Notes: generated by a model from the letters alone, not told the origin. A DNA stretch of 64,000 nt from an uncultured Candidatus Saccharibacteria bacterium (GCA_965231075.1 OZ246412.1:170019-234018), one strand, 5' to 3'. Shown: positions 13,672-41,362, counted from the first letter of the stretch. Translations and numbers: made by a program.

Positions 13672-13701
13672 CAGCCCCGCCAATGCGGGGCTGTTTTGTT
13701 G
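13672..13701 (+). terminator. Rho-independent terminator ending the ribosomal operon
   Basis: CAGCCCCGC-CAAT-GCGGGGCTG hairpin followed by TTTTGTTG. Confidence 0.85.
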
Positions 13702-13750: not shown

Positions 13751-13780
13751 ATTGACAGAGAATACAGTGTTGTGGTATAA
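13751..13780 (+). promoter_or_regulatory. Sigma70-like promoter with an extended -10 (TTGACA-18-TGgTATAAT) for the CAP-sortase-surface protein operon
   Basis: TTGACA at 13751-13756 and TGGTATAAT at 13772-13780. The first plausible ATG (13789) is 8 nt downstream, so the mRNA is leaderless or nearly so. Confidence 0.6.
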
Positions 13781-13788
13781 TGATATAT

Positions 13789-14745
13789 ATGATAAATATT
13801 GTCAAATGGTTTAATAGGATGTTTATTCCCAGCCAAAGAAACGGTTGGAAGCCACAGATTTTTAGACCCAAGAATTTATTTAGGTTAGCTGTGGTTTTGT
13901 TAATTTTAAAATTCATTGCTTTCTCTTGGTTGGCATATTTCCCAAAAACTAGCAATTTCGCTGTTGTCACCGGATCTGAATTAATTGAATTAACGAATCA
14001 AGAGAGAATTGCTAACGGGCTTGAACCTTTGACCATAAACACCAAACTAATTGATGCTGCTACCAAGAAAGCAACCGATATGATAAATCAAGGATATTTT
14101 TCTCATACCAGCCCAAAAGGACTTAGTCCCTGGTATTGGTTTACAAAAGCAGGATATAAATATTTAGCGGCGGGAGAAAACTTGGCTAGAGGATTTAGTG
14201 AAAGTGAGTATGTTCATCAAGCATGGATGAATTCTCCCACACACAAAGCAAACATTTTGAGCAGCAATTATAAAGATATCGGTATCGCCGTAATAAAAGG
14301 AACCGTTAATGGCAAAGAAACGACCATTGCTGTTCAGCTTTTTGGCAAAACAACAACTCAGCAAGTTGCAATAAACACTGTAAAGCCGACCAAAACAAAT
14401 CCGGAACCGATTATATCTCCAGATGCGAACAAAACAGAAACCCCTGCGGTTATTGATATTCCCGTAACCAAGCCGATTGTTCAGGGAGAAGAAGTAGAAC
14501 TATTAAAAGGTCCGGAAGTTTTTAAACAAAGAAGCGTTTTATTTAAATCAGATTTCTGGACGAACACTGTTTTTGTGATTGTTTTAAGCGTTGTAAGCTT
14601 AATTTTAATGCTTAGCTTCTTTATTAATATAAAAATTCAATATCCGAAAATGATTTTAATGGTATTAATTTTTATCGTTCTTTTAGCTGCCATAGCATTA
14701 TTTAATGGGGGAGCATTATTAAACAGTAAAATAGACATTATTTAA
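13789..14745 (+). CDS. Membrane-anchored CAP/SCP/PR-1 superfamily protein (YkwD-like). The start is uncertain; 13780, 13789 and 13819 are all possible.
   Basis: CAP domain motifs (GYFSHTSP, GENLARGF, HQAWMNSPTHKANIL, IGIAV) with an N-terminal signal anchor and a C-terminal pair of TM helices. Confidence 0.7.
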   Translation: MINIVKWFNRMFIPSQRNGWKPQIFRPKNLFRLAVVLLILKFIAFSWLAYFPKTSNFAVVTGSELIELTNQERIANGLEPLTINTKLIDAATKKATDMINQGYFSHTSPKGLSPWYWFTKAGYKYLAAGENLARGFSESEYVHQAWMNSPTHKANILSSNYKDIGIAVIKGTVNGKETTIAVQLFGKTTTQQVAINTVKPTKTNPEPIISPDANKTETPAVIDIPVTKPIVQGEEVELLKGPEVFKQRSVLFKSDFWTNTVFVIVLSVVSLILMLSFFINIKIQYPKMILMVLIFIVLLAAIALFNGGALLNSKIDII

Positions 14746-14746
14746 A

Positions 14747-15364
14747 ATGAAAGAGCTTTTAATTTTTATTTTAATTTTCGCGGCTGTTCTGGGTGTTGCA
14801 ATGCTTGTTTTTAATGGCAGATTTATTTATGCACAAATAAAATACTCTTTTATTGGTCCACCACCAGTTTCTTCTGCTCAACTAAGCTTGCGAGAAACCA
14901 TTGAGTCGATGTTTTCCGATAAAGAATATCTATTTCCTGACAGACTTTTAATTCCTTCTTTAAACATAGAAGCACCAGTAGTTTTGTCGCAAAATCCGGA
15001 AGAAAAAAGCTTGCAAACAGACCTTGAAAACGGAGTAATTTTCCTTCCGGGGTCAACCGCAATAAATGAAAATGGAACCATGGTTATTATGGGACACAGT
15101 TCCGCCTATCCCTGGTACAAAGGGCAATACGGATCCATTTTTGCGCTATTAAATAAACTTAACGTTGGAGACGAAATTATTGTTTTCTCTAAACAAAAAA
15201 GCTTTACTTATACGGTAGAAGGCAAAGAGATTAAGGCACCAAAAGATTTAATTTTTCAAAAAGATAAAAATAATTCGGTTTTGTATTTAGTTAGCTGTTG
15301 GCCGGTAAATACCGCCTGGAAAAGGATTGTCGTAAAAACTGTTAAGGTCCTTGACAAGAATTAG
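14747..15364 (+). CDS. Sortase-family transpeptidase (205 aa, N-terminal membrane anchor)
   Basis: Catalytic triad in context: His in VIMGHSS, Cys in LYLVSCWP (the TLxTC position) and Arg in WKRIVV. There is an N-terminal TM helix. Confidence 0.7.
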   Translation: MKELLIFILIFAAVLGVAMLVFNGRFIYAQIKYSFIGPPPVSSAQLSLRETIESMFSDKEYLFPDRLLIPSLNIEAPVVLSQNPEEKSLQTDLENGVIFLPGSTAINENGTMVIMGHSSAYPWYKGQYGSIFALLNKLNVGDEIIVFSKQKSFTYTVEGKEIKAPKDLIFQKDKNNSVLYLVSCWPVNTAWKRIVVKTVKVLDKN

Positions 15365-15409
15365 TTATTGTGATATACTTAACGCATAATCGTTAAATTA
15401 TTTAAATAT

Positions 15410-17890
15410 ATGAAAAATCTAACATTTAATGAAAATGTAAAGTTTTCAACAACAGCAATGGTTGTTTTAACCAGTGTCTGTGTTTTAATTTCTGTTTTTG
15501 CTGTAATTGGAACTGTTAGTGCGGGCAGTTTGCCTAACGGCTCAAGTTGTTCAATAAATTCTGATTGTTCATCAAATGATTGTGTTTTCGGCACTTGTTT
15601 GGCCCAGCCATATTCGAGTTGTGATTCAACAATTGATTGTACGGGAACAACAGATAATAGCATAATGGGTTGTTATAGTGGACAATGCAAGGGTAGACAT
15701 TTTTATCCATGCGGAGATTATAGAGAAGATCCAGTTTGTGGTTCGGACTTTCATTGTGATATCAGCGGGACCTTGGGATACAATTATTGTGAACAAAACC
15801 ATCCCAAAACTCCAGTTCCTACCTGTTCAATTTCAGCAAATCCAACAAGTATTATTAATGGCAATTCTTCACTTTTAACTTGGACATCAACTAATGCTAC
15901 TTCTTGTACAGCTTCTAATGCTTGGTCGGGATCTAAATCAATCTCAGGAAACCAATCAGTTTCCCCAGGTTCTAATTCAACCTATGCATTAACTTGTACT
16001 GGTGCTGGTGGAACAGTGAATTGTTCTGCTCATGTTACAGTGACAACAGTCGACCAAACCCTTTCTTGTTCCGTAGCCGCCAACCCAAACAATGGAACAG
16101 AGCCATTATATGGTGTTGATTTAACGGCCGATGTTTTTGGTACGGCAACTGGCACAATTAATTATAAATTTGATTGTACTAACAACGGAACATGGGATCA
16201 TGTTTTTGATAATATTTCTAATGATCCTAAAACGGTCACTGATGCCTGTAATTATTCTTCAGCGGGGACATATACAGCAAGAGTAATGGTTGAAAGGGGA
16301 AGTGCGTCTGCAGCCTATTGTCAAACCACGATTAATGTTCAGGAGTCTCATAATCCAGATCCTACATGTTCAATTTATGCAAGCCCAAGTTCAATCACTA
16401 ATGGTAATTACTCAAATTTAAATTGGAGCTCAACCAATGCCAGTTATTGTACAGCTTCTAATGCTTGGTCGGGATCTAAATCAACCTCAGGAAACCAATC
16501 AGTTTCTCCAGGTTCCAACTCAACCTATACATTAACTTGTTATGGTTATAACGGTGGATCAGATACTTGCTCTACAACAGTATATGTTAATAACGACAAC
16601 AATGTTGATTGTTCAATTTATGCAAGCCCAAGTTCAATCACTAATGGTAATTACTCAAATTTAAATTGGAGCTCAACCAATGCCAGTTATTGTACAGCTT
16701 CTAATGCTTGGTCGGGATCTAAATCAACCTCAGGAAACCAATCAGTTTCTCCAGGTTCCAACTCAACCTATACATTAACTTGTTATGGTTATAACGGTGG
16801 ATCAGATACTTGCTCTACAACAGTATATGTTAATAATGTTTATAATAACCCAAACTTAAGAATTGAAAAATTAGTGAGAAATGTAAGCAATAATAACTCC
16901 AGCTTCTTTGACAGCGTTAGCGCTGAGCCGGGAGATGAAATAGAATTTTTGATCAGAGTCACCTCAATTGGAACAAGCAATGCCATTGACGTTAGAGTTA
17001 AAGACGAATTGCCATCGGGATTAAATTATATTAGTGGAACTACGACCATTGACGGTTCTTATTATGGTGATGGAGTGGTTAATGGATGGATTTCGTTGGG
17101 AACCATTTCTCAAAACAATACCCGAGAAATTAAATTCAAAACAAAGGTTAGTTCTTCAATTGGTGGGACTTCAGCCAACTCTTTAATTATTAATGTTGAA
17201 AGTCAAAACACTCAATTATCGAACAATGTTTCACTAAACAAATCAGCAAGAAATGTCACTCGTGGAAATGGAGAATGGGCCAATTCGGTGTCGACTTATT
17301 ATGGCGATGTTGTGGAGTTTTCAATGAAGATTGCCAACAACACCAATAATTCGATTACTAATGTTAAAGTTCAAGAAACAATTCCCGCAAAACTTTCTTA
17401 TGTTGCCAATAGCACAACCGTAGATGGAGCTTATTGGGGTGGAGACGTTATTGGTGCAGGATTAAATTTGGGGACTCTAAGTCCAGGACAAAGCAAAACA
17501 ATAAAATTCAGAGTGGTTGTGACCGAAAAAACTTCTGGGGCGGTTGGTTTGGCGGGACCGGCGACCTTGATTAATACTGCTTACGTGATTGCCAATGGAA
17601 TTTCTCAATTATATGACACGGCAGTAGTTAATGTTAGCGGTGAATCGGGAGACGTTTTGGGTGCTTCAACTGTGATTACGGGTGCTGGTACGTTTGGTTT
17701 GGTCTTGTTGATATGGATGAGCATGCTTGTTGCGTTATGGTTTTATTGTAAGACCAGAGAAACTAAATTATCAGAATATCTTGCTAGAGAAAACGGTAAC
17801 AAACTATTAAAAACAATCATTGGCTTATATTTCAAATTAAGTTTGAGATTGAAGCTTATGACATTGAGATTTAAACAGGTTTATTTGTAA
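15410..17890 (+). CDS. Large secreted or cell-surface protein (826 aa). It has an N-terminal signal/TM, a Cys-rich module, three ~80-aa Ser/Thr/Asn-rich repeats (two near-identical), two DUF11-type conserved-repeat domains, and a C-terminal hydrophobic helix with a basic tail.
   Basis: Repeats are PTCSIYASPSSITNGNYSNLNWSSTNASYCTASNAWSGSKSTSGNQSVSPGSNSTYTLTCYGYNGGSDTCSTTVYVNN x2 plus one diverged copy. DUF11-like segments (EPGDEIEF...VRVKDELPSGLNYISGTTTIDG; YGDVVEFSMKI...ETIPAKLSYVANSTTVDG). C-terminus GAGTFGLVLLIWMSMLVALWFYCKTRE. Confidence 0.75.
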   Translation: MKNLTFNENVKFSTTAMVVLTSVCVLISVFAVIGTVSAGSLPNGSSCSINSDCSSNDCVFGTCLAQPYSSCDSTIDCTGTTDNSIMGCYSGQCKGRHFYPCGDYREDPVCGSDFHCDISGTLGYNYCEQNHPKTPVPTCSISANPTSIINGNSSLLTWTSTNATSCTASNAWSGSKSISGNQSVSPGSNSTYALTCTGAGGTVNCSAHVTVTTVDQTLSCSVAANPNNGTEPLYGVDLTADVFGTATGTINYKFDCTNNGTWDHVFDNISNDPKTVTDACNYSSAGTYTARVMVERGSASAAYCQTTINVQESHNPDPTCSIYASPSSITNGNYSNLNWSSTNASYCTASNAWSGSKSTSGNQSVSPGSNSTYTLTCYGYNGGSDTCSTTVYVNNDNNVDCSIYASPSSITNGNYSNLNWSSTNASYCTASNAWSGSKSTSGNQSVSPGSNSTYTLTCYGYNGGSDTCSTTVYVNNVYNNPNLRIEKLVRNVSNNNSSFFDSVSAEPGDEIEFLIRVTSIGTSNAIDVRVKDELPSGLNYISGTTTIDGSYYGDGVVNGWISLGTISQNNTREIKFKTKVSSSIGGTSANSLIINVESQNTQLSNNVSLNKSARNVTRGNGEWANSVSTYYGDVVEFSMKIANNTNNSITNVKVQETIPAKLSYVANSTTVDGAYWGGDVIGAGLNLGTLSPGQSKTIKFRVVVTEKTSGAVGLAGPATLINTAYVIANGISQLYDTAVVNVSGESGDVLGASTVITGAGTFGLVLLIWMSMLVALWFYCKTRETKLSEYLARENGNKLLKTIIGLYFKLSLRLKLMTLRFKQVYL
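16362..16847 (+). repeat. Two tandem, nearly identical 243-bp in-frame repeats inside the surface-protein gene. A third, diverged copy lies at ~15823-16060.
   Basis: Sequence from 16367 onward recurs with offset 243 (tgttcaatttatgcaagcccaagttcaatcactaatgg...), with only a handful of differences over ~230 bp. Confidence 0.9.
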
Positions 17891-17914
17891 AAGTTAATTT
17901 CTATTCTCGAAATA

Positions 17915-17947
17915 TAAAAAACCGGAGACCTGATCTCCGGTTTTTTA
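17915..17947. terminator. Bidirectional rho-independent terminator between the surface-protein gene (+) and the HTH gene (-)
   Basis: CCGGAGACC-TGA-TCTCCGG hairpin at 17922-17940, flanked by an A-run (17915-17921) and a T-run (17941-17947). Confidence 0.85.
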
Positions 17948-17964
17948 TATTAGCAATAAAACTA

Positions 17965-18180
17965 TTAATAAATATCAATCTTACGATTGCGATTTCTTTC
18001 TTTGCTGATTTCCATTTTTCTTAAGAACATTTCTAGTTGTTCAGTTTTATATACGCGGTAATTATTCAAAGGATGGCGGTATGCTTTTAATTTGCCGTTT
18101 TTATCCCAGTTTCGCAGAGTTAAAGGGGTAACACTCAGAATTTTGGCCGCCTGTTTAATATTGTAATATTTTTGTTGCAT
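17965..18180 (-). CDS. Small MerR/excisionase-family helix-turn-helix DNA-binding protein (71 aa)
   Basis: IKQAAKILSVTPLTLRNWDKNGKLKAYR matches the excisionase/MerR-type HTH. It is a monocistronic unit between a terminator and a divergent promoter region. Confidence 0.65.
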   Translation of the reverse strand: MQQKYYNIKQAAKILSVTPLTLRNWDKNGKLKAYRHPLNNYRVYKTEQLEMFLRKMEISKERNRNRKIDIY

Positions 18181-18298: not shown

Positions 18299-20695
18299 AT
18301 GATTACATCTTTCTTTGCAAAGATTAATATTTTTAAGTCAATGACTGGCAAGAATGTATTAGATGAAGCAATCAAAAAAATCGTTTACATTTTAGTAGTT
18401 TTAATTCCAATATGGTTTTTGCCGACAACTATAAATGTCTTAGAGTTAAATAAACAATTTTTAATTGTAGTTTTAAGCATAATTGCTTTGATTTTGTGGC
18501 TTGTTAAGATATTGAATACGGGAGAATTAAGAATCAAAAACAATATTATTAATTTTACATTAGCTGCCTTTCTTCTGGTTGCAATTCTGTCTACAATTTT
18601 TTCTGTGCAGGCCTACGGTAGTTTGATTGGATCAGAAAACAATCTTAATTTTAGTCTAATTAGTATTTTCTCTTTTATTGCTCTGGCGTTCTTGATAGTC
18701 AATAATTTTAAAGATATAAAAGAAAAATTTGGATTATTGTTTGCCTTTTTGATTTCTGCGGCGATTGCCTGTGTTTATGGATTTTTACAACTATGGGGTG
18801 GATTCATCTTCTCCTGGGAATTTGCTAAAAATGCTGCTTTTAACACTGTTGGGTCGGTAAATTCATTTGGCATATTTTCTGTGATTACTCTTATAATTGT
18901 TTCAGCGTTACTCTTTGTTGTGAAAAATAAGGGAATTAAAATATTTTTTAGTTTATTGGCGTTATTAAACTTAATTACGATTATTAGTATTAATTTTTTA
19001 ACACTTTGGATTATTTTAGCGGCAGGCATATTCGTCTTGCTCTTATTGGCGTTGGGTCACATAATCTATCTTGGTAGAAGCGTAAGCTGGATAGCCCTAC
19101 CAATGATTTTACTGGGACTATCTTTAATCTTTATATTTTTTAGGCCAAACTTATCTCTTGGTCCACAACTTTCAACCGAAGTGGGACTGAGTCACAAAGG
19201 AAGCTTCTCGGTTGTTCTAAACACAATTAAACAAAAACCAATTTTAGGAAGCGGTCCAGAAACATTCGCCTTTAATTATGCAAAATATAAACCAGAGATA
19301 ATTAATCAAACTGCTTTCTGGAATGTTAGTTTTTCTAATCCTGCTGGTGAAATTTATGCGATGATTTCTGATTTCGGCATACTAGGAACAATATCATTCG
19401 TGGCAATTTTGATTGTTTTTGTGATGGGTGTAATTAAAAATATTATTAACGGCAAAGAAGACGATGTTTTCAAAAAATTCTTAAATGTAGGAATTTTGTC
19501 TGGGTGGTTCGCAATTTTAGTTGGGTGGTTTCTTTACCCACAAAGCATCGTATTAACGTTTGTGTTTTGGTTGTTATTGGCAATTTATCTAATTGACAAC
19601 AACATCAAAGAAGAGAGGATTTATAATTTAAGAAAAAACCAAAAGACATTATTAATTTCAAGTTTATGCTTTGTTGTTGTGATTGTTTTGGTTATTGGTC
19701 TGCTTTATGTGTCGGGCACAAGATATATTGCGGATATTATTTATGGTAGGGGCATAAACTTAGTGCAAGTCGACGGAGATCTTAACAATGGAATCAATAA
19801 GATTGTAAAGGCAACAGTGGTTAATCCATATCAAGATAATAATTATCGAGCTCTGTCTCAGTTATTTACCATTAAATTACAACAAGATGCCTTAAACGAA
19901 GATTTAACACAAGAAGAGAAATCAAGTTTAATACAAGAAGATGCAATAAATGCGATAAATGCGGCAACCAGGACAACCACACTATCTCCTCGCAATGCTT
20001 CGAATTGGTTATTAAGAGGTCAGGTATATCGCAACTTGGCTGGCATTGTTGATGGTGCCACCGATTGGGCAAAAACTTCGTATGAAGAAGCGATTAAATT
20101 AGAACCACTAAATCCATTTATTTATCTGGAATTGGGTAGATTATACATCAATCAAGCAGATTTGATTGCTGAACAAGCAAAAAAAGATCAGGGCGCACAA
20201 AAAACATGGGAAGAATATATGTCAAAGGCCATCAAAAACACGGATAAAGCAATTGAATTAAAAGCGAATTATTCTGATGCCTACTATACTCAGGCACAGA
20301 TTTATGATCGACAAGGAAAAATTACGGAAGCAATTCGTAAATTGGAAATAAATAAACAATTATTACCAAATGATAAAAATGTAGCATTTCAATTGGCTGT
20401 GTTATATTATCGTGCGGAATTATTTAAAAAAGCAAAAGCTGAATTTATCAGGGCAATTGTTTTGGATGATAATTTTTCAAACGCTAGATATTTCTTGGGA
20501 CTACTATATGATTGGGAGGGGAGCAAAGAAGATGCAATCGATCAATTTGAGAGAATTGCTCAACTAAACCCAGATAACGAACAAGTACAAGACATTTTAG
20601 CCAACATTAGAACAGGTAAGCCAGCGCTTGGTAAGGCCATAAGCGCAAAAAGTCCGGCAGATCTATTAATTGAAGAACAACCAATTAATCAATAA
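18299..20695 (+). CDS. O-antigen ligase/polymerase-like (Wzy_C family) polytopic membrane protein fused to C-terminal TPR repeats (798 aa)
   Basis: ~12 TM helices with a Wzy_C-like periplasmic loop. The C-terminal third has TPR-like repeats (AIKLEPLNPFIYLELGRLY..., ELKANYSDAYYTQAQIY..., LDDNFSNARYFLGLLYDWEG). Confidence 0.65.
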   Translation: MITSFFAKINIFKSMTGKNVLDEAIKKIVYILVVLIPIWFLPTTINVLELNKQFLIVVLSIIALILWLVKILNTGELRIKNNIINFTLAAFLLVAILSTIFSVQAYGSLIGSENNLNFSLISIFSFIALAFLIVNNFKDIKEKFGLLFAFLISAAIACVYGFLQLWGGFIFSWEFAKNAAFNTVGSVNSFGIFSVITLIIVSALLFVVKNKGIKIFFSLLALLNLITIISINFLTLWIILAAGIFVLLLLALGHIIYLGRSVSWIALPMILLGLSLIFIFFRPNLSLGPQLSTEVGLSHKGSFSVVLNTIKQKPILGSGPETFAFNYAKYKPEIINQTAFWNVSFSNPAGEIYAMISDFGILGTISFVAILIVFVMGVIKNIINGKEDDVFKKFLNVGILSGWFAILVGWFLYPQSIVLTFVFWLLLAIYLIDNNIKEERIYNLRKNQKTLLISSLCFVVVIVLVIGLLYVSGTRYIADIIYGRGINLVQVDGDLNNGINKIVKATVVNPYQDNNYRALSQLFTIKLQQDALNEDLTQEEKSSLIQEDAINAINAATRTTTLSPRNASNWLLRGQVYRNLAGIVDGATDWAKTSYEEAIKLEPLNPFIYLELGRLYINQADLIAEQAKKDQGAQKTWEEYMSKAIKNTDKAIELKANYSDAYYTQAQIYDRQGKITEAIRKLEINKQLLPNDKNVAFQLAVLYYRAELFKKAKAEFIRAIVLDDNFSNARYFLGLLYDWEGSKEDAIDQFERIAQLNPDNEQVQDILANIRTGKPALGKAISAKSPADLLIEEQPINQ

Positions 20696-21385: not shown

Positions 21386-22153
21386 ATGGTTAAAATCAAA
21401 CGAAAACCAGTAATTGCAATTTTGTCATTAACTTGTTGTGAAGGATGTCAAGTTGCGATTTTTGATTTAGGGGAAAGGTTTTTGGAATTTTTAACCAAAG
21501 TAAATATCGGTGATTTCCAATTAGCAGAAGAACTTCCTGATGTAAAAAAATATGATATTGCCATTGTTGAAGGTACAGCAATTACGAAAGCACAAATTAG
21601 AAGATTAAAGGAAGTTAGAAAGAAATCTAAAATATTAATCGCCATTGGTGCTTGTGCATTACTTGGAGGGCCACAAGAATTAAAAGATTATCGTGGCGAT
21701 AAAAACAAACTTATTAGACAAATTTATCCCAATGTTCGGGGGATTGATAATCCTAATGTAAAATCGGTCAAAGAAATGGTCAAAGTGGATTATGAAATTC
21801 CAGGTTGTCCAATAAACAAAGAAGAATTTTTTACAATCATCAATAAAATTTTAGAAAACAAAAAACCAAAAATTGAACAAAAACCAGTTTGTGAAGAATG
21901 CGTTAGAAAAAATAAGATGTGTTTATTGTTGTTAGGCAAACCATGTTTAGGGGCGATAACCCTGGCTGGTTGTGGCGCACCGTGTCCCAGAAGTGGTTTT
22001 ATGTGTGATGGATGTAGAGGACCGAAACAAAAAATTAATTTAAACGCAATGAAAAAAGCACTGAGAATTAAGGCACGATTAACTGACAACGAAATCGATA
22101 TGATTTTAGAAAGGTTCGGTAAGTGTAATGAATTAAAAAAAGCAAATTTATGA
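21386..22153 (+). CDS. [NiFe]-hydrogenase small (Fe-S) subunit, group 3/F420-nonreducing-like (255 aa)
   Basis: N-terminal proximal-cluster region (AILSLTCCEGCQ) and a C-terminal Cys-rich region (CEECVRKNKMC...CLGAITLAGCGAPCPRSGFMCDGCRGP). NuoB/hydrogenase-small fold. Confidence 0.8.
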   Translation: MVKIKRKPVIAILSLTCCEGCQVAIFDLGERFLEFLTKVNIGDFQLAEELPDVKKYDIAIVEGTAITKAQIRRLKEVRKKSKILIAIGACALLGGPQELKDYRGDKNKLIRQIYPNVRGIDNPNVKSVKEMVKVDYEIPGCPINKEEFFTIINKILENKKPKIEQKPVCEECVRKNKMCLLLLGKPCLGAITLAGCGAPCPRSGFMCDGCRGPKQKINLNAMKKALRIKARLTDNEIDMILERFGKCNELKKANL

Positions 22154-23406
22154 AATTAAGAATAGATCATATTGCGAAAATTGAAGGACATGCGAGTTTT
22201 ACCGCTGACATTGTTGACGGTGATGTTAGAGCGGCAAAAATTAAAATTGAAGAAGGAGCGAGATTATTTGAGGGTATTATGCAAGGCAGAAAGGACGAAG
22301 AAATCGCCGAGATTGGCTCAAGGATTTGTGGGGTGTGCCCAGTTGCTCATGTTTTTGCGGGTTTCAAAGCAATTGAAAACGCATATAAAATAGAGGTTAC
22401 TGAACCGGTATTGTCATTGAGAAAATTGATGTCTTTGGGGCAATTAATTAATAGTCACGCATTGCATTTATTTTTCTTTTCTTTGTCTGATTTTTTTGGA
22501 TTCAAAAGCGATTTAGAATTAGTGAATGCGTATCCTGAAAAAACTCACGATGCCGTGAAAATCAGAGACATTGGTAATAGATTAGTAGAAATTATTGGCG
22601 GAAGATCAATTCACCCCCTAACTCCTTGTATCGGCGGAATGAGAAAATCACCAGACACAAGCGAATTAAAGCAACTTTTAATTGATTGTCAGAATAATTT
22701 AGAATTAACTATAAAATTAGGTGAATTATTTATTAATCTAAAATATCCCGATTTTCATCGTCAAACAACTTTTGTTTCTCTTTACAATCCCAACGAATAT
22801 GCGATCTACGACGGACAAATTAAAGTTGATAAAATCGTGATGAAACCAGAAAATTTTATATCTTTACTTAAAGAAGTTCAAAAGGGTAATGATGTTGCTA
22901 AAAGAACGTCCTTTGCGGGTAAAAGTTATATGGTTGGAGCATTGGCAAGAATAAACAATCATCGAGAACAACTAAACCCACATGCCAAAGAATTATTAGA
23001 AAAATCTAAATTAAAATTTCCTTGTTATAATCCGTTTTACAATATTATGTGTCAAGCGATTGAATTAGTGCACTGTTTTGAGGAGGCAATCAAAATTTTG
23101 AATAAATTAATCAATCAAAAAATCGTTGTTTCGGAACCAAGGATAGAAAACACAAGTGGAACAGGAATTGGAATTGTCGAGGCGCCCAGAGGCATATTAT
23201 TTTATGGCACAGAAATAAAAGATAAAATTGTTAAGGGTATGGAAATTGTTTCGCCAACTTGTCAAAACCTTACCAACTTAGAGGCAGATTTAGAAGAATT
23301 TGAAAGATTGGGAGGATTTAAGAATTTAGATAAAAAAGAAAAAGAAGATAAGATTAAAATGTTAATTCGCGCATATGATCCTTGCGTAACTTGCGCAGTA
23401 CACTAA
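22150..23406 (+). CDS. [NiFe]-hydrogenase large (catalytic) subunit, 418 aa. It ends exactly at the C-terminal metal-binding motif with no cleavable extension.
   Basis: L1 motif RICGVCPVAH near the N-terminus and L2 motif DPCVTCAVH as the last 9 residues before the stop. Confidence 0.85.
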   Translation: MKLRIDHIAKIEGHASFTADIVDGDVRAAKIKIEEGARLFEGIMQGRKDEEIAEIGSRICGVCPVAHVFAGFKAIENAYKIEVTEPVLSLRKLMSLGQLINSHALHLFFFSLSDFFGFKSDLELVNAYPEKTHDAVKIRDIGNRLVEIIGGRSIHPLTPCIGGMRKSPDTSELKQLLIDCQNNLELTIKLGELFINLKYPDFHRQTTFVSLYNPNEYAIYDGQIKVDKIVMKPENFISLLKEVQKGNDVAKRTSFAGKSYMVGALARINNHREQLNPHAKELLEKSKLKFPCYNPFYNIMCQAIELVHCFEEAIKILNKLINQKIVVSEPRIENTSGTGIGIVEAPRGILFYGTEIKDKIVKGMEIVSPTCQNLTNLEADLEEFERLGGFKNLDKKEKEDKIKMLIRAYDPCVTCAVH

Positions 23407-40390: not shown

Positions 40391-41362
40391 TTATTCCTTT
40401 AGTTTTTTTCCACTATGAAATTGGCGGTGGATGTCGCGGAGGTGTTTGTTGGTGACGTGAGTGTAGATTTGAGTTGTGGCGACGCTTTGATGACCAAGAA
40501 TCTCTTGAACTGTTCTTAGATCTGCTCCTTGGTTTAGTAAATCGGTCGCTAATGTATGACGTAAAACGTGTGGAGTAACTTTTATTGGCAATCCCGCAAG
40601 ATGCGAATATTTTTCTACCATTCTTTCAATCGAACGCACAGTAAGTCGAGAAGGGGAGAGATCGCTCTCTTTCTTGGGTCGATAATTAATAAATAGTGCT
40701 TTGTCGTCATCATTTCTTGTATCTAAATAATGTTTTAACCACCGCACAGCTCTTTCGGAAAAATAAACCGTTCTAACATGTCCGCCTTTTCCCGTGATGC
40801 TTAATTCCACATCTTTGGTGTCAGGTTTTATTTTAAATTGATTTCTATTTAAAGCAACTAACTCGGCAATACGCAATCCAGTAGAGAAGAGGATTTCCAA
40901 AATTGCTCGATCTCGCATCCCGATATTGTGCGACGTATCGGGGGTTAGCAACAATTTCTCAACTTGGTCTAATGTTAAGAACTTTACAGTTTGTTCGCTT
41001 TTTTCTCGTTTGGCTAATTTAATTTTATCAACTGGTAATGATTGAATGTCTCGATCAGTAAAAAAAGTTAATAAATTTCTTAAGGCAATTAAGTAATAAT
41101 TTTGTGTCTTCTTGGTTAGAGTTTTAGGAGAAGTGTCTGAAATAGGTGAGCGGGCCAAAAAGATTCGATACTGCCAGATATGTTCGGACGTCAGTTCGTG
41201 GGGCTTTAAATCTTCATTTTTGGTTGTTTTTAACCAATTGGTAAACTTGTGTAAGTACCGGGCGTAGTTTTCTTGAGTTTTTGATGCCGCACCACGTTCA
41301 ATTTCTAAATACTCAAGAAAATCAGATATATGTTTTATTATGGGAATATTAGATGTCTTCAT
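40391..41362 (-). CDS. xerD: Tyrosine site-specific recombinase, XerC/XerD-like
   Basis: N-terminal SAM-like domain and the C-terminal catalytic region HVLRHTLATDLLNQGADLRTVQEILGHQSVATTQIYTHV, which contains R, HxxR and the Y nucleophile. Confidence 0.85.
   Translation of the reverse strand: MKTSNIPIIKHISDFLEYLEIERGAASKTQENYARYLHKFTNWLKTTKNEDLKPHELTSEHIWQYRIFLARSPISDTSPKTLTKKTQNYYLIALRNLLTFFTDRDIQSLPVDKIKLAKREKSEQTVKFLTLDQVEKLLLTPDTSHNIGMRDRAILEILFSTGLRIAELVALNRNQFKIKPDTKDVELSITGKGGHVRTVYFSERAVRWLKHYLDTRNDDDKALFINYRPKKESDLSPSRLTVRSIERMVEKYSHLAGLPIKVTPHVLRHTLATDLLNQGADLRTVQEILGHQSVATTQIYTHVTNKHLRDIHRQFHSGKKLKE

Follow-up and report, generated by a model that had tools for sequence, protein, structure and literature searches.

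Within a 64,000-nucleotide stretch of the genome of an uncultured, ultra-small Candidatus Saccharibacteria bacterium (GCA_965231075.1, OZ246412.1:170019-234018; hereafter the window), three open reading frames (ORFs) lie on the plus strand between 13.78 and 17.89 kb. The first encodes a membrane protein with a CAP domain, the second a sortase and the third a surface protein of 826 aa. We consider it likely that these genes form a sortase/substrate module specific to Patescibacteria, in which the surface protein would be sorted through a V-x-T-G (VxTG) motif by the mechanism proposed below. The module is of a known kind, a sortase-anchored adhesin with variable repeats; its signal is undescribed, its sortase clade is unclassified and its CAP partner is recurrent. 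In the literature searched, neither a VxTG signal nor the long tail that follows it nor a CAP-sortase pairing was found to be described. The three genes had first been grouped into one unit from the nucleotide sequence alone (hereafter the sequence-only reading), and this grouping was borne out: the ORFs are co-oriented and matched the Pfam families CAP, Sortase and, twice, DUF11 (Table 1).

Patescibacteria, or the Candidate Phyla Radiation (CPR), make up a large part of bacterial diversity, and their lifestyle seems to be one of attachment to other cells. The display of adhesins in these bacteria is poorly understood, and the module offers a candidate route. Published work on the subject centres on type IV pili and on Pam pili, which were described recently. 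The latter ("novel pilus system in CPR" preprint) were rejected as a relative of the module, since they rely on donor-strand exchange and not on a sortase. Sortases are a CPR-enriched family (PMC6744442), and CPR surface proteins have been said to bear "sortase motifs" (PMC6744442, PMC5220378).

The sortase and its candidate sorting signal

The 205-aa product of the second gene is a sortase by hidden Markov model (HMM) score, catalytic triad and fold. It scored 75 bits with PF04203 (cut-off 26.6) and passed a single NCBIfam sortase model, the generic TIGR01076 (40.9 bits against 39.35). His117 (in GHSSAYPWYKGxYGSxF), Cys184 (in SCWP) and Arg193 were invariant among 18 aligned homologues and, in a sequence alignment, in register with the catalytic residues (GH.. 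and ..TC) of two PDB sortases, one being the SrtA enzyme of B. anthracis and the other of class C; the sequence-only reading had rightly described a sortase-like transpeptidase with His, Cys and Arg in place. The AlphaFold2 (AF2) model, with a predicted local distance difference test (pLDDT) score of 80, consists of an N-terminal transmembrane (TM) helix and a sortase beta-barrel. Foldseek returned 134 PDB matches to this model at E ≤ 1e-3, the best 50 of which were all sortases, with class C enzymes at the top (8t28 SrtC2, 3g66, 2xwg; E ~1e-10). A structural class assignment was rejected, as classes C, D, E and A matched about equally well (1e-10 to 6e-9). None of the NCBIfam models for classes A-F and GN was passed in an HMM search for the sortase class, scores of 23-44 bits facing cut-offs of 140-166 (best, class D, 43.5/165; C, 37.2/160; GN, 30.9/158; E, 30.3/160; F, 23.6/166). 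Like sortase A of S. aureus and B. anthracis (SrtA, PDB 2kw8), the window enzyme is a Cys transpeptidase that is anchored in the membrane and has a beta-barrel with the triad His-Cys-Arg; unlike sortase A, to which it shows 16-26% identity structurally, it carries an SCWP strand instead of TLxTC.

The surface protein encoded next to it ends in ...GDVLGASTVITGAG, the TM helix of residues 761-780, KTRE and 42 further residues; in peptide form, the motif region reads GDVLGASTVITGAGTF. In the AF2 model the linker that joins the final beta-sandwich to the TM helix (residues 744-766) has a pLDDT below 50. The sequence-only reading had noted the lack of a canonical LPxTG in this protein and supposed that the motif might be non-canonical, and the comparison of related loci indeed pointed to V-x-T-G before the TM helix. 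Among 75 non-redundant neighbours of the sortase family, the logo upstream of the C-terminal helix was x-V-x-T-G-[PA]-[GA]-[DE], followed by about 20 TM residues and a basic tail. The position of the LPXTG proline was occupied by V in 60 of the 75 tails and by I in 6, the first motif position being variable; before other TG dipeptides of the same proteins, the background of V was 8%. VxTG neighbours were retained down to 30% sortase identity.

In its general plan this signal is that of the sortase A substrates, which likewise combine a signal peptide with a C-terminal motif, a TM helix and basic residues, and x-x-x-T-G is kept. It differs from LPXTG in its variable first position, in the lack of Pro, in the [PA][GA][DE] that follows and in a conserved tail, where LPXTG proteins have a few basic residues. 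The tail beyond the TM helix has a median length of 27 residues in the family (range 13-57) and comprises 46 residues in the window protein. Throughout the clade of the window protein it has exactly this length and the form FYC[KR]xRExKL...GLYFK...LRFKQVY[FL]; loci of the Yanofskybacteria type have Y.GYTRT..F.+RE...D..FNF. Both sequence comparison and the AF2 model describe the tail as conserved helices. A hydrophobic helix plus basic residues, the end that the sequence-only reading had assigned to the protein, is present, but 46 residues of conserved helices follow the TM helix, 42 of them after KTRE; they in turn matched no family model. A motif, a TM helix and a basic cluster also make up the PEP-CTERM, PGF-CTERM and GlyGly-CTERM signals of exosortase, archaeosortase and rhombosortase; in contrast to the window sortase, those enzymes are unrelated polytopic proteins, no gene for which is present in the module, and their CTERM models did not match the window tail.

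To describe the family, one genome per species was scanned for the sortase signature GHSSAYPW...[ST]C[WY]P, which yielded 54 loci of ±6 kb each. Their records named Patescibacteria lineages or simply "bacterium", except for a 2.5-kb contig labelled Lutibacter, and named homologues of the sortase and the surface protein belonged to Patescibacteria (Portnoybacteria, Paceibacterota and others). DUF11-type surface proteins adjoined the sortase in most of these loci, with the gene order CAP-sortase-substrate or substrate-CAP-sortase. Of the 54 loci, 32 (~60%) contained a CAP homologue, which lay no more than 150 nt from the sortase in 26 of them and farther off within the ±6 kb in the other 6. In one CPR locus, L061, the sortase is of the TLITC type, the substrate has an LPATG tail, and a CAP gene is present as well. 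As far as can be read from the sequences, it is one case of co-variation between enzyme and signal, with TLITC going along with LPATG and SCWP with VxTG.

In the mechanism that we propose, the 826-aa protein would be exported through the Sec pathway, after which its C-terminal helix would keep it in the membrane. The membrane-anchored sortase, with Cys184 as the nucleophile assisted by His117 and Arg193, would read V-I-T-G in the flexible extramembrane linker and cut after Thr757. It would then hand the protein to a cell-wall amine (lipid II or peptidoglycan), or possibly to another subunit.

A number of points weigh against this assignment. The surface protein lacks L-P-x-T-G and has T-V-I-T-G instead, with neither Leu nor Pro. 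Neither TIGR01167 and PF00746 nor other Pfam and NCBIfam sorting-signal models matched the window tail or three related tails at E ≤ 10; the LPATG tail of L061, taken as positive control, passed TIGR01167 (19 bits against 15.9). The T and G of the logo were imposed by the pattern used to search for tails, V and the downstream residues being free, and the 54 loci were all found via one peptide pattern and are one family by construction. The long conserved tail is atypical of classical anchors and could play a separate role. VxTG itself is the putative sorting motif of this sortase family on comparative grounds, from which cleavage and wall attachment are extrapolated. The neighbours of CAP genes and the origin of the copy-number counts, both described below, add to these points.

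The module might instead build a covalent pilus or fibre in a class C-like manner, Thr757 being joined to a lysine of the next subunit instead of, or before, wall anchoring. Pilus-assembly class C sortases are the closest structures (8t28 SrtC2, 3g66, 2xwg), and DUF11 domains, renamed CLIPPER, form isopeptide bonds and are typical of pilins as well as adhesin stalks (PMC12617251). Clustered enzyme and substrate genes and isopeptide-type Ig domains are shared with the class C pilus islands of A. oris (SrtC2, 8t28) and S. pneumoniae (SrtC, 3g66), and so is the number of substrates in the related CPR loci L038, L047 and L048, where three to five VxTG substrates stand in series around one sortase, as in Gram-positive pilus islands. 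However, structures of classes A, D and E match nearly as well, the class C NCBIfam model gave 37 bits against its cut-off of 160, and the 18-homologue alignment shows no conserved DP[FWY] lid motif in the stretch that leads from the TM helix to the first strand. The window itself holds a single substrate, without a recognised pilin motif; a pilin-motif lysine was not identified, although no search aimed at one was made. We regard a pilus as unlikely on this balance.

The sortase might also have its substrates elsewhere, leaving the surface protein as an unprocessed type I membrane protein whose VxTG and tail serve docking or signalling. Such a protein could account for the 46-aa helical tail, atypical for a sorting signal, and for the failure to match either LPXTG or an anchor model; moreover, the (E/D/Q)VLGA motif of the upstream linker also occurs in CPR proteins with other types of anchor. 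Yet in 75 different proteins, all of them encoded beside this sortase family, V-x-T-G-[PA]-[GA]-[DE] kept a constant place ahead of the TM helix, and motif, TM helix and basic residues form the tripartite layout of sortase signals. The 64-kb window contained no alternative candidate substrate, and a scan of it found no second protein with VxTG, TM helix and tail. We thus judge an unprocessed protein to be improbable and retain sorting through VxTG.

The (E/D/Q)VLGA motif is an observation in its own right: in CPR surface proteins of a further sample of loci (L063-L142, described below; e.g., L090, L096, L113 and L133) it stands just before varied C-terminal modules, among them peptidoglycan-binding-like modules (assigned by eye), anchors that have LPATG or consist of a TM helix only, and the VxTG module of the window (GDVLGASTVITG).

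Together, the VxTG motif, the sortase signature and the partner gene would allow the sortase-anchored surface proteome to be predicted from sequence. Surveys by LPXTG-like patterns overlook VxTG proteins. Sortase-based protein ligation might gain a new specificity from this pair of enzyme and peptide.

The surface-protein stalk and its repeats

The AF2 model of the surface protein is a string of six beta-sandwich domains. Its DUF11 domains, predicted by the sequence-only reading, were recovered with PF01345 in two stretches above the cut-off of 24.6 bits. For tip, Ig-like repeats and tail, the Pfam search yielded nothing above noise (a PKD match at E=0.21; nothing for the 81-aa repeat, the tail or the tip). 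Foldseek with the whole protein returned multi-Ig proteins (complement, alpha-2-macroglobulin) at template-modelling scores of 0.1-0.2 and was set aside as uninformative beyond a "string of beta-sandwiches". The protein had been called giant and Cys-rich. The first term is misplaced for 826 aa; the second holds for the 12-Cys tip and the four 4-Cys domains, but not for the DUF11 domains, which have no Cys. Apart from Cys24 in the signal-peptide helix and Cys780 in the TM helix, all Cys residues fall between positions 47 and 468.

CLIPPER domains carry an intramolecular isopeptide bond in the stalks of fibrillar adhesins (PMC12617251). In sequence alignments Asp532 coincided with the isopeptide Asp of PDB 9IFR, and K487, D532 and N722 were almost invariant; the second DUF11 domain carries Glu at the acid position. 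The protein resembles the CLIPPER fibrillar adhesins (PMC12617251; PDB 9IFR) in having two stalk DUF11 domains near the sorting end and a distal, putatively adhesive tip, and differs from them in its host, a CPR bacterium. The sortase patterns of the CLIPPER survey were LP.T[GAND], NP.TG, LP.GA, LA.TG, NPQTN and IP.TG (PMC12617251); since V-I-T-G fits none of them, the survey would miss this protein. According to our proposal, the stalk would consist, from the wall outward, of the two DUF11/CLIPPER domains, four disulfide-bonded Ig-like domains and the 12-Cys tip as the likely binding end. The 4-Cys Ig-like 81-aa unit (15821-16849) is not confined to this protein: over 100 other large proteins contain it, with as many as 12 copies in tandem, and some of these proteins are labelled Proteobacteria.

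Two of the three repeats had been described as almost identical over ~230 bp, and their identity proved to be exact: positions 16367-16593 equal 16610-16836 in 227 of 227 nt. The tandem duplication spans 470 nt with a period of 243 nt, or 81 codons (Tandem Repeats Finder: 1.9 copies, 100% match, score 940). The third copy (15824-16050) is 71% identical. In the orthologue from locus L002, which is collinear and 79% identical, exactly one unit is missing (739 versus 826 aa). Because the copies are exactly identical and the duplication is absent from this orthologue, sequence comparison dates it as recent, in line with the sequence-only reading. Orthologues with the same 46-aa tail contain from 1 to at least 5 units. 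A sister lineage is represented by four proteins of 847, 847, 927 and 1007 aa that are elsewhere ~100% identical, have 2, 3 or 4 copies and differ in length by whole 80-aa units only. Their N-terminal tip is unrelated to that of the window protein; as stalk and anchor are otherwise shared, tips are apparently exchanged on a conserved stalk and anchor.

That the locus expands and contracts, as also claimed at the outset, was confirmed in part. Copy number does vary among relatives (1 versus 2 in the comparison with L002; 2, 3 and 4 in the sister lineage), but the counts come from short-read assemblies. Identical 240-nt repeats are difficult for short-read assemblers, and the differences may partly be collapse artefacts. 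In the proposed mechanism, recombination between the identical 243-nt repeats would change the number of 81-aa units and, with it, the length of the stalk, and the family would offer candidates for host-binding proteins in which gain and loss of repeats alter the stalk length. An assembly artefact is a very unlikely source of the exact 243-nt duplication and of the differences in copy number between relatives. In its favour, an independent k-mer assembly of SRR12133403, which matches the window at 100% identity for 11,187 nt, ends at 15933, within a 38-mer common to all three repeats, and the 847-, 927- and 1007-aa proteins, which differ by exact 80-aa units, derive from different short-read assemblies. 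Against it, the two window copies can be told apart by their flanks and a 16-nt junction, the source contig of the window is 626 kb long, the L002 orthologue, from another species, has a single copy there in an otherwise collinear protein, and orthologues span 1 to at least 5 units. A look-up of the exact 826-aa protein returned no contig on record, and the k-mer assembly, reached through the sortase, was the sole independent contig. An NCBI genome contig, 626 kb in length, encodes identical copies of the sortase and the surface protein.

The CAP-domain protein

The first gene had been read as encoding a membrane-anchored CAP/SCP protein. This description held, with three TM helices and a PF00188 score of 65 bits (cut-off 21.1) that places the protein in the CAP superfamily; scores for narrower CAP families remained below their cut-offs (YkwD TIGR02909, 129.5 against 171 bits; DalA NF052539, 51 against 200). 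Of the possible starts, 13789 fits the orthologues (MRNIVKWF...) and a leaderless transcript. The cytoplasmic N-terminus bears the motif F-[IV]-P-x3-N-x2-[KR]P-x-[IL]-L-[RK] and is followed by the first TM helix, the extracytoplasmic CAP domain (residues ~66-188 of the 321-aa ORF) and a C-terminal part with a variable Pro/Thr linker and a TM hairpin with an IQYP loop. His96, Glu120 and His142 were invariant among 20 aligned homologues, and all named homologues were from CPR bacteria. The conserved His/Glu/His is shared with the CAP proteins YkwD and DalA (PMC10470522), from which the window protein differs by its three TM helices, its conserved cytoplasmic N-terminal motif and its being encoded with a sortase.

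A second sample started from CAP and comprised 80 metagenome loci (L063-L142) plus 4 look-ups. A sortase adjoined the CAP gene in only ~17 of the 80 loci, and large surface-protein genes did so in 31, many with the (E/Q)VLGA linker. A role of CAP as a dedicated sortase cofactor was rejected on these counts, other neighbours being common. In this sample gene neighbourhood thus links CAP to surface-protein display in general and not to the sortase alone. DalA, a distant CAP relative, is a divisome lipoprotein that binds peptidoglycan non-covalently (PMC10470522), and by analogy a wall-facing role of the window protein is plausible. The three-TM protein, cotranscribed with the sortase, would act at the interface of membrane and wall, for example by binding wall material or by positioning the machinery.

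A broader proposal takes the sortases with GHSSAYPW and [ST]C[WY]P as a distinct, undescribed class with its own signal (VxTG, TM helix and a long conserved cytoplasmic tail for docking or retention), CAP as the accessory that couples sorting to the wall, and the whole as the main covalent route by which Parcubacteria-type CPR bacteria display adhesins for host attachment. As one joint claim we put it forward tentatively and consider it doubtful.

CAP genes also had other neighbours. Directly 3' of CAP, 20 of the 80 loci encode a three-TM protein of ~85 aa (e.g., L103, 1564-1815; also L056, 5918-6178), which is not part of the window module. In Woesebacteria and Shapirobacteria (L056, 3308-5918; L058, 2406-5918) the CAP-TM gene has no adjoining sortase; its neighbours matched weakly to Peptidase_M73 (TasA/camelysin-like) and Peptidase_S24 (SipW-like) and may belong to a different surface-fibre system.

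Transcription and gene context

The coordinates of the module are collected in Table 1. One promoter and one terminator had been assigned to it by the sequence-only reading. Both were found (P1 and the terminator), but a second, conserved promoter-like sequence, P2, precedes the surface-protein gene. The -35 and -10 boxes of P1 are kept in the orthologous loci L002 and L004. In P2 both boxes are invariant in these loci and the rest of the spacer has diverged, and for this reason the module probably has two promoters. A promoter scan of the window as a whole gave 16 sites against 18.7 in shuffled sequences and thus no enrichment; only the two top-scoring sites, both kept in orthologues, were used as evidence. 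The ATG at 13789 lies 7 nt past the -10 box of P1, a spacing that is identical in L004. This position, together with orthologues that begin MRNIVKWF, suggests a leaderless CAP-sortase transcript starting at 13789. The final sortase codons (...V-L-D-K-N*) form the -35 box TTGACA of P2 (15351-15364), and sortase orthologues often end in LDK[NQ]; given this overlap, the C-terminus of the sortase may be constrained by the promoter.

Table 1. Positions of the features of the module in the window
Feature	Position	Strand	Basis
Promoter P1 of the CAP-sortase genes, TTGACA-18 nt-TGnTATAAT	13752..13781	+	12/12 consensus match, extended -10
CAP-domain membrane protein, start 13780/13789/13819 (308-321 aa)	13789..14745	+	Pfam CAP E=1.3e-17
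Sortase, 205 aa, N-terminal TM helix and catalytic domain	14747..15364	+	PF04203 E=5.7e-21
Promoter-like P2 of the surface-protein gene, TTGACA-17 nt-TGnTATACT	15351..15379	+	11/12 match, second-best in scan
Surface protein, 826 aa, putative sortase substrate	15410..17890	+	ORF; DUF11 x2
Sec-type signal peptide, aa 1-38, predicted cleavage ...VSA|G	15410..15523	+	Sequence; helix 14-34 in model
12-Cys tip region, aa 39-135	15524..15814	+	Cys count; pLDDT <50
Ig-like 4-Cys repeat copy 1, aa 138-212	15821..16045	+	Beta-sandwich in model; 71% DNA identity to copies 2 and 3
PKD-like 4-Cys beta-sandwich, aa 218-311	16061..16342	+	Weak PKD match E=0.21; model
Ig-like repeats 2 and 3, aa 319-399 and 400-480	16367..16836	+	Exact tandem duplication
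Two Cys-free DUF11/CLIPPER stalk domains, aa 484-600 and 607-742	16859..17635	+	PF01345 77.1 bits, TIGR01451 75 bits
Candidate sorting motif V755-I-T-G758	17672..17683	+	Disordered linker just before TM helix; family logo
C-terminal TM helix, aa 761-780	17690..17749	+	Sequence; helix from residue 758 in model
Basic cytoplasmic tail, 46 aa, KTRETKLSEYL...GLYFK...LRFKQVYL	17750..17887	+	Conserved in at least 15 orthologues (length and motifs)
Bidirectional intrinsic terminator (A-tract, 17-bp stem, U-tract)	17912..17950	both	Hairpin dG -21.6 kcal/mol

The terminator hairpin had a z-score of -7.06, and none of 200 shuffled sequences was equally stable. It also serves a convergent gene for a 71-aa protein of the MerR/HTH_17 type (17965-18180, minus strand). 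Upstream, the module borders on the ribosomal-protein/rpoA operon, which is closed by a strong terminator at 13672-13693 (the rpsI terminator). The window has a low GC content (32-40%) and densely packed genes.

Further downstream, positions 18299-20695 encode a 798-aa protein with a polytopic N-terminal half that had no Pfam match and a C-terminal TPR array; this neighbour of the module may be an envelope glycosylation or ligase-type protein. NiFe-hydrogenase genes for the small (Oxidored_q6) and large (NiFeSe_Hases) subunits follow at 21386-23406. Peptidoglycan-synthesis-like ORFs (MurG-, FtsW-, MraY- and PBP-like), assigned in the window from their translations by eye, speak for the proposed module. 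Between ~37000 and 42000 the gene orientation flips from plus to minus, with the maximum of the cumulative GC skew at ~40-42 kb, and this region is probably the replication terminus. A XerC/D-type tyrosine recombinase is encoded there (40391-41362, minus strand), adjoined by a PD-(D/E)XK nuclease and a patatin-like phospholipase.

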